Positions 7,343 to 12,765 of a stretch of DNA of 64,000 nt are shown here, piece by piece. Origin of the DNA: an uncultured Acidobacteriota bacterium (GTDB lineage: Bacteria; Acidobacteriota; Thermoanaerobaculia; Multivoradales; JAHEKO01); NCBI GenBank assembly GCA_963713825.1, contig CAVQNG010000003.1:256001-320000 (forward strand), given 5' to 3'. Under the pieces are notes generated by a model. The model searched no databases. It saw only the letters and a list, made by a program, of their open reading frames with translations, and was not told the DNA's origin. Each line of letters starts with the position of its first letter. The stretch's first letter is position 1. The translations under genes were made by a program, and so were the position numbers.

Positions 7343-8802
7343 GCGACCTCAGAGCCTTCTTCACTCTCATCGGGCGCGATGCGTTCTTCTGGCTCGCCGC
7401 TCTCGGGTTGGGATGCGTCTCCATCCTCCTGGTCGCGATTACGCAGCCCCACGCTCCAACGGTCGACTACGTCGATGCCTTCATCCTGGCCAGCTTCGCC
7501 TTCCCCGCCCTGGCCGGTTGGCTGGCCGGGGCCATGATTCAGGAGCTGCAGACCTGCACCTTCACCTGGTCGCTTCCCAAAGTGCAGCCCAAGATCTCCC
7601 GAGGTTTCTTCACGTTCGGAGCGATCGTCACGGTCATCGTCGTGACCTTTGTCTCACTCCAGGGCTCGCCCTACAACCCGCTCGTGCTGGGAGCCGTCGG
7701 TCTGGCGGGCTATAGCTTCGGGGCCAACTACTACGGGCGGGTGACCTGGCACAGGACATGGCTCGCCACCATCTTTTCGCTGGCGGTCTTGTTCACCTCT
7801 CGAGGATTGGGCGGCCTGGCCAGTACGTATCCGGGGTCGACGGCCTTGTTGGCATTGGCGAGTGCCGGCTACTTCAGCTACGGCCTGCTGAGCGTCTCGA
7901 CCTTTCGGAAGGGGCGCTTTCGGTTACCGTCCCCTCTTCCAGGCGCCTTCTTCCTGCAGCGATCCCAGCGCTTCGAGCGACAGAAACAGGCGATGAGGAC
8001 ATCGCCTACCCGAGGGTGGCGATCGGGCTATCTAGGAAATACTCCCTGGAAATGGGTGCGTGCGGGTGTCCACGAAGCTTACGGCCCGCTGACTCTCGGG
8101 GTTGTCGGAAGGGCCATCGCCAGCACCTGGGTGTTGTGGCTGCTCGTCGCGCTTCACGCCTGGGTCGAGAGAGTCGAGGCGGGTGACGAGAGTTTTGGCA
8201 TCGCCCTCGGAAAGACCCTCCACGACGTTCTCCTCCGATCTCCGAATGTACCGCCGTACGGGGAGGAGGGGCCCTACGCGATGGTCGTCTTCGTCATCGC
8301 GGCCCTGGGCGCCATCCTGTGTCTCAAAGCCTCTGCGACTCCAAACAGCGGGGTGCTCTATCCCCTGTCTCGCAAAGCGTTTGCCGGCGTCGCCTTCCGA
8401 GGCGGGCAGGTAGAAGCCGGCTTCTACTTCGTGGCTATTTTCGTCGGCTTCCTTCTGGTGAGCCTGGTGGCCGGTGCACTGGTCGGCTACGAGACCCGCC
8501 TGGACTTCCTCCCCTTCTTTGTACGGCCGCTGATAGCGACTACAGTCCTGCTCCCACTGCTTCAATACGGACGGCTGCGAATGCAGGCCCCGGGTCGCCA
8601 GAAGGAGCAGAACGCCTTTCTGTTGGTCGTGGGCGGCGTCCTCGGGTTCGTCACGATGGTCTCGATCTGGACCTACTTCGCCCCACAGGTCTTCAGGACG
8701 ACGCGAGTCGAAATCGTCGCGTTCCTCGTCTTGCTGTTGACCTCTCGACTCGTCTACTGGGTCGCGGTGAGGCGCCACTTCGCCTCTGCCGACCTCGCCT
8801 GA
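7339..8802 (+). CDS. Polytopic membrane protein, probable ABC permease
   Basis: ATGA overlap with the ATPase; about 12 hydrophobic segments; no specific motif. Confidence 0.7.
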   Translation: MSDLRAFFTLIGRDAFFWLAALGLGCVSILLVAITQPHAPTVDYVDAFILASFAFPALAGWLAGAMIQELQTCTFTWSLPKVQPKISRGFFTFGAIVTVIVVTFVSLQGSPYNPLVLGAVGLAGYSFGANYYGRVTWHRTWLATIFSLAVLFTSRGLGGLASTYPGSTALLALASAGYFSYGLLSVSTFRKGRFRLPSPLPGAFFLQRSQRFERQKQAMRTSPTRGWRSGYLGNTPWKWVRAGVHEAYGPLTLGVVGRAIASTWVLWLLVALHAWVERVEAGDESFGIALGKTLHDVLLRSPNVPPYGEEGPYAMVVFVIAALGAILCLKASATPNSGVLYPLSRKAFAGVAFRGGQVEAGFYFVAIFVGFLLVSLVAGALVGYETRLDFLPFFVRPLIATTVLLPLLQYGRLRMQAPGRQKEQNAFLLVVGGVLGFVTMVSIWTYFAPQVFRTTRVEIVAFLVLLLTSRLVYWVAVRRHFASADLA

Positions 8803-8822
8803 CACGGCTGGTGTACCCTGAA

Positions 8823-9960
8823 ATGGTGACCAACTTCAGATTCCCTCGACTGGCGACGCTGGCCGTGGCGATCCTGGTGATCGGCTGCGGGGCCGACGAG
8901 GACAAACGAAATCCGGTCACCGCCGACCAAAATCACCTGGCACCTTCGGGGGCGATCGAGGTGGTGATCGAACTCGACACACCGCCCGGAAACGTCACGG
9001 TGGCGCCCGATGGGCGCGTCTTTTTCACGTTTCATCCGGCGGCGAAGCCGGCCTTGCATGTCGCCGAGGCTCTACCCGGCGGGAGCTTCGAGGTCTTCCC
9101 GGACATCGAGTGGCAGGAGCCGCGGGAGGACGGCCCCTACTTCGTTTCGCCTCTATCCTTGAGGGCCGACCGAAAAGGAAGGCTCTGGGTGCTCGACCAT
9201 GGAGACTTCGGCAAGGAGACGCCCAGCCTCACCGCCTTCGACATCGCCTCTCGAGTGATGGTCCATCGGGTCGAGTTCCCGAAAGACATCGCCAACTGGG
9301 GCTCGATGCTGAACGACTTCTGGGTCGACGACGAACGGGAGATCGTCTACATCGCCGATACCAGCGCCTACGACTTAGACCCCGCATTGATCGTCTACGA
9401 CATCGCTTCGCAAGGTGCCACCCGTCTTTTGGAGGATGACGTTTCGGTGAAGCCCGAGGACCATCACATGGTGGTCCAGGGCCGCTACATCAAGGTTTTC
9501 GGCATTCCCCTGCGGGTGGCTGTCGATTCGATCGCGCTGTCAGCCGACGGCTCGACGCTCTACTTCGGTCCCATGACCGGATCTCGCATGTACCGGATTG
9601 ATACCGAGTCTCTCCGTGACGCAAGCCTCGACAGAGTCCGAACTCGCGTCTCGAGTCCTGGAACATGGCAGCAAGCCCTCGACCGACGGCATCGCGGCCG
9701 ATTCGAAGGGCAACCTCTACCTCACCGCCATCGAGCACGACGCCGTCTGGGTGATGAGGCCCGATGGCAGCCTACAGGTGCTGGCGCAGGATCCCGAGCT
9801 TCTTTCCTGGCCAGACGGCGTCCACCTCTCTCCTGACGAGCGATGGCTCTACGTCACCGCGAGCGAGCTGCAGCATGTCCTGGGGGCCGATCTGGATGCG
9901 CTGCCGACGCAGCAGCCGTTTCGGATTCTGAGGATCCCGTTGCCAGCGGGCCTGCTGTGA
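8823..9960 (+). CDS. Major royal jelly/yellow (L-dopachrome tautomerase-related) beta-propeller lipoprotein; frameshift near 9630
   Basis: Lipobox LVIGC; RLWVLDHG, YIADTS, DSIALSADG, then in another frame KPSTDGIAAD...LSWPDG. Confidence 0.8.
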
Positions 9961-10013
9961 GATCGACCTGACCGCTCTCGCAGCCAGGCCTATCCCTCAG
10001 GTCAATTTACTCT

Positions 10014-10799
10014 TCAGGTTGGTTTGTTGGCCCGGAAGTTGATTCCGAGCGTGCCGAAGCTCGCCGCCGAGGACTGTTGAGGCGCACCGGCGAAGACCTC
10101 GTCTCGCCATGTGATCTCGAAGTCTTCGAACCCGGCCGCTTCGACCACCGCCTCGAGCTCTGCTTCCAGCAGAGCACCGGCGATTCAGCCCTTCCACAGA
10201 TCGATGTTCTGCTTGGCGCCATCCGGTACGGCCTTCTGCACCATGATGTCGCCGATCTGTAGCCTGCCTCCCGGCTTCAGGGCCCGATTCATCTCCTGGA
10301 AGAGGCCGACCTTGTCTGGGGCGAGATTCACCACTCCGTTCGAGATGATGACGTCGGCCCAACCGTCCTCCACCGGTAGCGACTCGATGAACCCCTGGCG
10401 GAACTCCACGTGGCCCATGCCGGCCGCAGCAGCAGCCAGTCGCGCCTTGCCGATCATCTCGGGCGTCATGTCGATCCCGATGACCTGTCCGGTGTGCCCG
10501 GCCAGCTTGCCGGCAATCAGGCTGTCGATTCCCGCACCCGAGCCAAGGTCTACAACCTTCTCGCCCTCTGCGATTTCACCCAGGCTGAATGGGTTGCCGG
10601 TTCCGGCGAAGGACTCGATCGCCGCTTCGGGGATCCCTTCGAGAAGGGACGGGGAGTACCCGAGAATTCCAGCCAGCTTCCTTCCGGTGTGGAAGTGGAA
10701 CCCCTTGTCAGGGTTCTTCGCGACGCTGGCGTACTCCTTCTGGATCTCGCCGCGCAGCTCATCGACATCGACGTTTGGAACGGGAGGGGCGACCGTCAT
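10014..10799 (-). CDS. ArsM-like SAM-dependent methyltransferase, predicted selenoprotein (UGA at 10185-10187 read as Sec)
   Basis: SAM motif VVDLGSGAGID, GIDMTPEM, LKPGGRL. LWKG-UGA-IAGAL aligns with ArsM WxGCIAGAL. The frame continues 56 codons (IAGALLEAELEAVVEAAGFEDFEI...NKPT) to TGA at 10014-10016. Confidence 0.85.
10147..10184 (-). promoter_or_regulatory. Putative bacterial SECIS element
   Basis: Directly 3' of the UGA: ATCGCC-GGT-GCTCTGCT-GGA-AGCAGAGC-TCGA-GGCGGT. Perfect 8-bp upper stem, G-containing apical loop, internal loop and 6-bp lower stem. Confidence 0.75.
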
Positions 10800-11305
10800 C
10801 CCTCGGCCCTCTCGTACTGGATCTCCATCGCCTTGAACTCCTGCCCCTCGCGGGTGAAGAAGCTCTCCATCGAGTGGTGGTCGTCGTCCTTCAGGGTGAT
10901 CACTGAGCGCTTCGACATCGTTCCGCCCTCGGGATCGACCATCTCACTGGTCATCGTCCAGACTTTGCCCGTCTCGTCCACACTGCCGGTCTCGAGTTGC
11001 ATTATGGTGCTGGCGTTGTCGATCCAATAGCCCTCGAACCGTTTGGCCATCCGGTTGTAGCCCCAGAAACCGTGGCCTCTGAAGCTCGGGAAGGGACCGT
11101 CATTGGGATCCCCGACGTATTTCTGGCGCAGGTAGCGCCCATCGAGAACCATGATGTTGGTCATGGTGCCGGTAGAGACCATGGGGTCTCCGGGGCCCAT
11201 CCAGAGTTGCACCTCGGCACGAAAGGTCCCGAGGAACGGCCTCAGGAGCTTGTGCTCCGGGCCTGGAGACATGGCTTCCGCACCCGCCTGTGCTTCTTCC
11301 GTCAT
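10796..11305 (-). CDS. DUF1579 family protein
   Basis: PGPEHKLLRPFLGTF, LDGRYLRQ, GHGFWGYN...GYWIDNASTI, MEIQYER. GGAGG RBS; stop overlaps the methyltransferase ATG. Confidence 0.85.
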   Translation of the reverse strand: MTEEAQAGAEAMSPGPEHKLLRPFLGTFRAEVQLWMGPGDPMVSTGTMTNIMVLDGRYLRQKYVGDPNDGPFPSFRGHGFWGYNRMAKRFEGYWIDNASTIMQLETGSVDETGKVWTMTSEMVDPEGGTMSKRSVITLKDDDHHSMESFFTREGQEFKAMEIQYERAEG

Positions 11306-11309
11306 GAAC

Positions 11310-12765
11310 TCACCTCCGAAACAGCGTGAATGTTGCGGGCATTCTAGCCGATCGGGCGCGAGACCACTCGAGTGCGACAAGGGCGGCGAAGAGTCCATAC
11401 TCCAGCCAGAGCCACCATGCTCGCTCGATGCCGTCGAGGTAGATCAAGTAGGACAGCAGGCTCAGCCCTGTCAGGCCAATCCAGGACCAGCACCCCACAA
11501 CAGCCGCCAAGGGCAACGCCCAAAGCAGATACCAGGGCATGACAGCAGAGTGCAGGAGCACGACCGCCGCGAGAATGAAGAAAGCGACCCTGAGGATGCT
11601 GTCCTTCGAGGGGCGTGAGAACCACGGCAAGACAACAATCGCCACCAGGCTCAGGAGCTTTGTCGTCCAGTGGGCCCAGGCCGTCGGATCGGAGGTGCCA
11701 GCCACCTTTGCCAGCCAGCGGATAGCGGCCCAGGGGCCGGAGTTGAAGGTCCATTCCCGGGCGTAGGCACCCAGGCCGCCCGACAGTGCCACCAATCCAC
11801 CGAGCATTGGCAGGCTACCGAGCGCAAGCACGGCGAAAAGAACGACACCAGAGGACAGGTCGGGTGTGCCGTAGGAAGAGAACTCCGAGAGCCGCCGACC
11901 CTACCTTCGCCAGGATGCTGAGCGCCAGAGCTCCGAGTGCCGCCGCCTGGCGCTTCTGGACCAGGCAGAGCAGGGCCAGCATCATCAGAAACACCATCAC
12001 CGCGTCGAGGTGGCCCGAGCCGGCGAACTCCTTGATCGCCAGCGGATTCCACGCGTAGAGGAGGACGTACGATCGGTTCCTCCCAACGGCTCCAAGAAGC
12101 GAGAGCACCACCCAGCAGGTACCCAGATCGGCGAGGACGATCAGCAGCTTCCAGACGAAGACACTGGCAGGTGCCAGCCGATTCGAGAGGCCAAAGAGAT
12201 ACTGGGCCAAGGGCGGGTAAACCGTTCTGTAGCCCTGGAAGCTGACGTTGTCGACGACATCCCACCAGACTTCTTCTTCAAGAAGCGCGGCGTGGGGCTC
12301 CGATCCTTCCTCGGCAGAAGTGATGACTTCCTGCGGCGTAGTCTCGTAGGGAGAGACCCCGTTGGCCGTCAGATGCCCGTCCCAGAGATACCGCCAAACA
12401 TCGTTGTCGTAGATGAGAAACGGGGAATAGCCAGTCGCTGTTCCCGAGAGGTCGTTCGCCAAGGCTGCCACCGGCCTATCGTGAGGCAAGCCCGCAAAGA
12501 GTAGAATGAAGCGGAAGACCACCGCGAAGGCCAGAATCGTGGCCACCGAGGCGCGCTTTCGGTCGCTCTTGCTGTGAACCAGCAGAGCAGCCACTGCGTA
12601 AATAGCAAATAGCGCCCCAAAGGCCACGAGGAAGCCGACCACATCTCGCAGTGCGTTGGAGAATTGCAGGCGGAAGGCGACAAGGAGATAGACGAGAGCG
12701 GAGAGGGACCCGAGAAGTGCCACCGGTACCCGTCCTTCGAGTCGTTTCCAAAACCTGGCCATCAT
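11310..12765 (-). CDS. GT-C fold membrane glycosyltransferase (GT87/DUF2029-like); frameshift near 11846
   Basis: DNDVWRYLWDG, TVYPPLAQ, YAWNPL...GSGHLD, then in the shifted frame WTFNSG and VMPWYLLW; multiple TM helices. Confidence 0.8.

Follow-up and report, generated by a model that had tools for sequence, protein, structure and literature searches.

Proteins that carry selenocysteine (Sec) and go under the name 'arsenite methyltransferase' form an established selenoprotein family. A family of this name stands in the 2008 Global Ocean Sampling selenoprotein table, with row figures of 8, 4 and 245 (PMC2398784), and a survey of more than 5,200 bacterial genomes gives 41 such proteins in 39 organisms (PMC5029168). 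In the passages that two reviews devote to it, the family is called 'experimentally verified', in 2022 with a 2007 Science paper as the source cited (PMC9312934), and in 2026 with the motif UxxG and beside three fused or double NCBIfam families (PMC13188914). The gene described here is a further member. It lies at positions 10017–10799, on the reverse strand, of a 64,000-nucleotide stretch of DNA from an uncultured Acidobacteriota bacterium (GCA_963713825.1, contig CAVQNG010000003.1, positions 256,001 to 320,000), to which we refer as the window. The original prediction, drawn from the letters of the window alone, had allowed that the family might not be new, and according to the survey passages cited above Sec-containing 'arsenite methyltransferases' have indeed been on record since 2007–2008.

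Set beside the published Sec-containing arsenite (S-adenosyl)methyltransferase (PRK11873/NF008823), whose members were compared by description, the protein agrees at the family level in its fold and in the UxxG position of its Sec, which reads U-I-A-G here; it differs in falling under the NF008823 cut-off and in lacking every other ArsM Cys. A second point of comparison is TtArsM (TTC0109) of Thermus thermophilus HB27, which according to its description has a single Cys and two proposed His ligands, and which offers a precedent for a site made of one chalcogen and two His. It differs, again by description, in that its retained Cys is another of the three and in that it is not a selenoprotein.

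The reading frame opens with ATG at 10799–10797 and runs for 204 codons, ending NIDLWKG, before it meets TGA at 10187–10185. With TGA translated as Sec (U), the frame continues as UIAGALLEAELEAVVEAAGFEDFEITWRDEVFAGAPQQSSAASFGTLGINFRANKPT, which adds 56 sense codons (10017–10184) until the TGA at 10016–10014; the latter is the true stop, and Cys-form relatives finish within a few residues of it. The complete product counts 261 residues; residue 205 is Sec, and Cys is absent altogether. The continuation of the LWKG frame through 56 sense codons from IAGAL, which the original prediction had pointed out, is thus reproduced when TGA is translated as U. Taken as a whole, the locus is best explained as a selenoprotein and S-adenosylmethionine (SAM)-dependent methyltransferase of the ArsM/AS3MT fold, a reading to which we give a probability of roughly 0.88. 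Gene calling yields a 204-residue stub at this locus, as it does for at least 16 database clusters, and the proper annotation is that of a 261-residue selenoprotein.

The column occupied by the UGA (10185–10187) was followed in two sets of relatives. The protein set consisted of the best 120 of the 7,999 matches that came from scoring 8,000 candidates, and the DNA set of the 29 closest loci (L021–L049) in species-representative genomes together with 11 more distant ones (L050–L060). Among the proteins, 98 have Cys in this column, four have W, one R and one Y, and in the other 16 the chain ends exactly there, at 204–208 residues, as is expected of a gene caller that meets a Sec codon. At the DNA level TGC stands in the column in two of the 29 closest loci and TGA in the remaining 27, so that the Cys/UGA pairs for which the original prediction had proposed to search are found in both sets. 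These closest loci belong to metagenome-assembled genomes of at least five phyla (Acidobacteriota, Chloroflexota, Gemmatimonadota, Actinomycetota and Nitrospinota), and the distant loci are all (11/11) canonical ArsM with Cys. Within the window's own phylum there are at least 18 matches in 16 genomes, the source assembly included, each with one in-frame TGA. Of ten loci retrieved in this search, seven were flagged with a single in-frame TGA; six of the seven show it in the context W-x-G-U-I-A-G, a motif pattern that gave no match in the seventh (L110).

The 56 codons beyond the UGA differ from those of L022 at 8, 10 and 32 sites in codon positions 1, 2 and 3, respectively, with 23 of the changed codons synonymous and 12 non-synonymous. 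Third-position bias was seen in seven of eight comparisons (L021, L022, L023, L024, L025, L035 and L111, a second copy in the source assembly), the eighth (L033) being uninformative since an indel put it out of register. In the AlphaFold2 model, computed from a 60-sequence alignment, the mean predicted local distance difference test score (pLDDT) is 92.1 and the predicted template modelling score 0.91. Residues 201–260 have a pLDDT of 75–98 and are modelled as a helix (H212–221) and two beta-strands (E225–233 and E251–258) of the methyltransferase fold, and residues up to 241 are alignable to CmArsM. A chain cut at residue 204 would therefore miss part of the fold. Since the frame beyond the UGA shows homology to ArsM structures and the third-position bias recurs across genomes, what is observed is, on comparative grounds, far beyond chance; the bias and the predicted contribution to the fold both argue that homologs conserve the extension, as the original prediction required.

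Some relatives carry additional residues at the C-terminus. The six with W (P0019, P0027, P0032 and P0086), R (P0036) or Y (P0049) at the Sec column retain the ALLEAE/ALLPAE/ALLDAE peptide and have a C-terminal extension of about 25 residues that contains a Cys. Their W, R and Y may reflect the depositor's translation of TGA under another code, or may be genuine substitutions. The Sec-form relatives L026, L027 and L029 have an extension of about 22 residues (..EW..A..AL.C..). In L027 (approximately 2860–2960) a pair of adjoining TGA codons (..EEUUCG) comes after it, close to the end of that locus, which might represent an additional Sec-containing tail like the 'UXPK-star' type of NCBIfam.

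The source assembly (5.42 Mb in 38 contigs, 96% complete) contains the Sec machinery for which the original prediction had called. The genome search recovered selA (460.9 bits), selB (320.3 bits) and selD (339.5 bits), all above the curated cut-offs, and a tRNA-Sec whose 69.2 bits exceed the gathering score of 47 and which ARAGORN reports as tRNA-SeC with anticodon TCA. SelD is itself a selenoprotein, with one in-frame TGA in the sequence GGUAAK (G000:C25:839157-840080, L010); UxxK is the motif given for SelD in the relevant passage of the 2022 review (PMC9312934). There are no internal stops in selA or selB, which indicates that TGA does not serve as a sense codon in general and that the genome is not globally recoded. 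We conclude from the genomic evidence that the TGA at 10185–10187 is a recoded Sec codon and the gene that of a genuine selenoprotein.

The bacterial selenocysteine insertion sequence (SECIS) is a stem-loop shortly downstream of the UGA, with a G in the apical loop. A candidate of this type lies inside the coding sequence at 10157–10175 on the reverse strand, as a perfect 8-bp stem (GCUCUGCU/AGCAGAGC) with the loop GGA. This GGA-loop hairpin, noticed in the original prediction, begins 9 nt past the UGA, with 17 nt from UGA to loop, and codes for part of A-L-L-E-A-E-L; we take the 17-nt spacing and the G-containing loop to agree with the description of bacterial SECIS elements. Its weight rests on conservation across genomes and not on folding energy. 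Among 28 Sec-form sequences (27 distinct), 93.1% of the 216 pair cells hold a standard pair, compared with 29–54% when the 3' arm is slid by 1–3 columns, and none of 500 shuffles attained either the share of paired cells or the covariation score of the real alignment. Compensatory double changes occur at two of the eight pairs: at one, three related sequences have C-G in place of U-A, and at the other a single sequence has C-G in place of G-C. In 13 of the 27 distinct sequences the closing U-A is unpaired, which leaves a 7-bp stem with a UGGAN loop. At the stem, Sec forms read ALLEAEL, ALLDAE(L/Y), or ALPCAGW with both arms altered, while Cys forms are more variable in these residues (e.g. GLLKAQ, ALLETE and AVLEPE).

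Family assignment places the protein near ArsM. In Pfam it matches generic class-I methyltransferase domains only (Methyltransf_31, 9.8e-28), and its top NCBIfam model is NF008823, arsenite methyltransferase, at 229.5 bits, for which the cut-off of 263 is not reached. The best PDB matches by sequence are ArsM chains (E-values of 1.4e-27 to 5.5e-26), and ranks 1–12 of a Foldseek search with the AlphaFold2 model are all ArsM/AS3MT (TMq 0.65–0.74). The glycine-rich SAM-binding motif VVDLGSGAG (residues 82–90; 10530–10556, reverse strand) pairs by sequence alignment with the vLDLG.G.G motif of ArsM structures, and D84, G88 and G90 are invariant in the 60-sequence alignment. Common to our protein and to the canonical enzymes CmArsM (4fr0/4fsd/6cx6), CrArsM (5evj) and human AS3MT (8xt7) are the SAM-binding Rossmann domain and the substrate-binding domain, so that with respect to fold it belongs with ArsM. 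The As(III)-binding Cys set (GCGNP, SNCV and GC[IL]xGA) is a different matter, since the third position alone is kept, as Sec205. In alignments with the solved chains the Cys of FYGCG/FWGCGNP is matched by T67 (FAGTGNP), that of ISNCV(C/I)NL by G155 (ISNGVVNL), and that of GEC(L)(G/A)GAL, which reads GEC(L)GGAL in CmArsM and CrArsM, by U205, all as the original prediction had proposed when it described a cysteine-free product with UGA on an ArsM Cys column. The N-terminal CC..CC of canonical ArsM is replaced by GFHFHTG, and the chain is 261 residues long, compared with 320–390 in the solved ArsM structures. PDB titles identify the first and last ArsM Cys columns as C72 and C224 of CmArsM, residues which we take to have roles in As(III) binding.

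The three NCBIfam families that share the UxxG Sec, namely NF041537 (ArsM/AhpD), NF041536 (ArsM/DUF2284) and NF047649 (methyltransferase/UXPK-star), match the protein at 228.3, 220.1 and 195.8 bits against cut-offs of 510, 575 and 460, respectively. It is a member of none of them, and has neither the AhpD domain, the DUF2284 domain nor the UXPK tail. Elsewhere in the genome there is a canonical ArsM (G000:C3:971838-972731; L112:1339-2232), which scores 329.3 bits against the NF008823 cut-off of 263, has the CC..CC stretch, GCGAP, SNCVINL and GCVAGA, and is adjoined by a gene for a MarR-type regulator. The sulfide/methanethiol methyltransferases MddH, MddM1 and MddM2 were considered as an identity and rejected, since the accessible descriptions place them in the UbiE/UbiG family, with no mention there of arsenite or selenium.

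The heptapeptide GFHFHTG (residues 33–39; 10683–10703, reverse strand), at the position of the canonical bacterial CC...CC, is the hallmark of the subfamily. Of 121 sequences (the query plus 120 matches), at least 119 retain it; the 60-sequence alignment shows no variation at F34, H35, F36, T38 and G39 and conservation of 90% or more at H37, and in 13 canonical bacterial ArsM loci used for comparison this location has the CC...CC stretch. Across the same 121 sequences the first ArsM Cys column is T in 120 and the second is G in all; the 29 DNA loci show T, V or M in the former and G or S in the latter. By this comparison the loss of the other ArsM cysteines is a trait of the whole subfamily, not a quirk of one gene. 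A precomputed TusA domain is found at the C-terminus of 17 of the 120 relatives listed, all of them Cys forms of 359–384 residues. The subfamily is large and old, and its members score too low for the arsenite-methyltransferase cut-off of NCBIfam. It is also abundant, with matches in 7,999 of the 8,000 candidates scored and the one-Cys pattern in each of the 120 examined. A literature search, which did not extend to supplements, returned no text that sets the one-Cys/Sec GFHFHTG clade apart from true ArsM, and this is no proof of absence. In metagenomic surveys 'arsM' matches are commonly tallied as arsenic-methylation potential; since two of the three As-binding cysteines are missing here and a canonical ArsM coexists in the genome, such counts may be inflated.

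A working model of the enzyme can be put forward. SelB-GTP-Sec-tRNA(Sec) would bind the hairpin and insert Sec at U205, which would then sit at the position of the last As(III)-binding Cys of CmArsM, beside the methyl group of SAM. The repeated exchange of Cys and Sec at one column points to a catalytic residue, and Sec205 could be a soft-atom ligand or a nucleophile of the active site. A soft substrate may be held on the single Se or S atom, with the two histidines helping, and then methylated. The chemistry of the subfamily probably differs from that of textbook ArsM, and the reading to which we commit ourselves is that it is presumably not the cell's ordinary arsenite methyltransferase. As to the substrate, a chalcogen species (selenium or sulfane sulfur, which TusA-like carriers would pass on) and a trivalent metalloid in a His2-Sec site, as proposed for the Thermus TtArsM, appear to us equally plausible, neither of them reaching even odds; what is left goes to some other compound. 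A more far-reaching proposal, which we regard as tentative and on balance doubtful, is that the GFHFHTG/single-Sec(Cys) clade is a separate, widespread family, filed as 'ArsM' by similarity and not an arsenite methyltransferase, whose His2-Sec/Cys site would either transfer methyl groups to a chalcogen (sulfane sulfur, selenide, or a persulfide or selenosulfide that TusA-like carriers bring in) or proceed via a Se-methyl intermediate. If so, the clade would be an uncharacterised source of volatile methylated S and Se in sediments. The swap of Sec for Cys in many lineages provides a clean handle for the biochemistry.

A number of points weigh against the interpretation of the gene as a selenoprotein with a function other than ordinary arsenite methylation. 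The incorporation of selenium is inferred from sequence. The 66-nt region after the UGA folds with z = -1.78, and 11 of 200 shuffles did equally well or better. Covariation is thin, amounting to two of eight pairs and 4 of 216 cells, and 50 of 500 shuffles match the count of double-change pairs; as the stem is also protein-coding and the sequences are related, we treat it as modest support and not as proof. A permissive Rfam scan of 9900–10900 returned two chance snoRNA matches, an uninformative outcome given that Rfam has no general bacterial SECIS model. With regard to function, genuine arsenic methyltransferases make up all of the closest homologs, by sequence as well as by fold, and the TusA match in the one fusion that was rescanned reached 25.4 bits, under the Pfam gathering score of 28.6. 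Clustering of open reading frames (ORFs) in the 29 loci found no widely conserved neighbor, the best being a metallo-beta-lactamase (MBL)-fold gene in four loci and a major facilitator superfamily (MFS) transporter in three. Finally, TtArsM, with one Cys and two His, is reported in the available text to be active on As(III) (bioRxiv 10.1101/2021.07.12.452139).

This last report gives body to the strongest of the rival explanations, namely that the protein is a working arsenite (or methylarsenite or antimonite) methyltransferase that binds As(III) on Sec205 together with His35 and His37 in place of three thiolates. All of its nearest relatives in sequence and structure are ArsM/AS3MT, and Sec at the As-binding UxxG position is already catalogued for 'arsenite methyltransferase' selenoproteins in the pertinent section of the 2026 review (PMC13188914). 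TtArsM, as described, methylates As(III) by means of a single Cys and two His put forward as ligands, and the His-x-His is invariant here. Against this stand the failure to reach the NF008823 cut-off, the canonical ArsM in the same genome and the absence of ars neighbors; moreover, the conserved Cys of TtArsM is, in the text at hand, a different one, near the SAM motif (bioRxiv 10.1101/2021.07.12.452139), and the TusA-like fusions among relatives hint at sulfur chemistry. We consider this explanation possible, somewhat short of probable. It also qualifies the argument of the original prediction that a single selenol cannot perform classical multi-thiol binding of arsenite, from which another substrate or mechanism was deduced. 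That deduction gains from the subfamily-wide loss of Cys and from the separate canonical ArsM, but to rule out arsenite is unsafe in view of TtArsM. Given the TtArsM precedent and the His-x-His, the lone-selenol argument is not decisive, and the odds split about evenly between a metalloid and a chalcogen.

The remaining alternatives concern the codon itself. If the protein were a double selenoprotein, the terminal TGA at 10014–10016 would also encode Sec, and the tail would read ...KPT-U-RVN, in the manner of the NCBIfam methyltransferase/UXPK-star proteins. NF047649 does match the methyltransferase part, at the 195.8 bits noted above, and T-TGA-R is present at this point in L021 and in the copy on contig C23 of the same assembly as well. 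The match, however, is far under the cut-off and stops at residue 229, and none of 201 genomes of the phylum reaches that cut-off. Relatives have TAA or TAG at this site as frequently as TGA, with no conservation of the residues beyond, and Cys-form proteins end here; neither a conserved hairpin after the second TGA nor a Cys at that column in relatives was seen. A second Sec is accordingly rejected as very improbable.

Slightly less credible still is the view that the TGA at 10185–10187 is a true stop, in which case the product would be a truncated 204-residue methyltransferase or the gene a pseudogene, with the downstream frame a relic. The deposition of 16 of the 120 relatives as proteins of about 204 residues would fit this, and a palindrome arisen by chance might in principle account for the hairpin, but the TGA and the downstream frame are retained together in 27 of 29 loci from several phyla, the third-position bias and the high-pLDDT helix and two strands speak for translation, and the genome has the full Sec machinery. 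A sequencing or assembly error for TGC or TGT, which the frameshift in a neighboring MRJP-like gene relative to its nearest relative might bring to mind as a sign of some indels in the assembly or genome, can be dismissed as next to impossible, since a substitution and not an indel would be required, the same TGA occurs in a second contig of the assembly and in 27 other genomes, and no variant at 10185–10187 appeared among the 40 of approximately 160 difference rows inspected for contigs of four independent runs (three metagenomes and one metatranscriptome).

No single piece among these run contigs covers the whole gene, and the metatranscriptome run (X15) covered 10415–10848 only. The habitats given for the runs are marine, salt-marsh and sediment, labels that carry no weight in the argument. 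Summed contig depth at 10136–10197, the region of the UGA and SECIS, was 84–127, 76–107 and 40–47 in the three metagenome runs, with most flanking bins at about 10–30. A comparable peak lies over the region of the SAM motif (10446–10507). The peaks are likely due to contigs from many related organisms that match conserved stretches at a likeness of 85% or more.

The immediate neighbors of the Sec gene are a DUF1579 gene, a membrane glycosyltransferase-like gene and an MRJP-like gene; no ars genes flank it, a context that is suggestive but not defining for ArsM. The DUF1579 gene (10796–11398, reverse strand; Pfam DUF1579, 3.6e-36) lies upstream, and its TGA stop overlaps the ATG of the methyltransferase in the sequence ATGA. 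It is likely a co-transcribed partner in this lineage only, judging from the arrangement, for among 80 loci searched it is shared with the nearest relative (L021) alone, apart from the C23 copy. The latter is part of a second DUF1579-methyltransferase pair, on the 7-kb contig C23 (G000:C23:1-3500, L111), in which the methyltransferase has about 93% protein identity and likewise possesses the in-frame TGA with the extension after it. This copy may stem from a genuine duplication, or from another strain whose variant was binned with the genome.

In other genomes the surroundings vary. An MBL-fold (Lactamase_B) gene is near the methyltransferase in L023, L026, L039 and L040, followed by an MFS transporter in L023, L039 and L040, and in L023 a second, unrelated class-I methyltransferase is located immediately upstream. 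Downstream of the Sec gene in the window, the convergent MRJP/SGL-like gene (8319–9960, forward strand) is split between two frames, as ORFs at 8319–9836 and 9598–9960, both of which match Pfam MRJP (profile positions 1–170 and 181–276). L021 has both parts in one frame, which locates a frameshift in the window near 9600–9650; the gene could be a true pseudogene, or the assembly could have an indel there.

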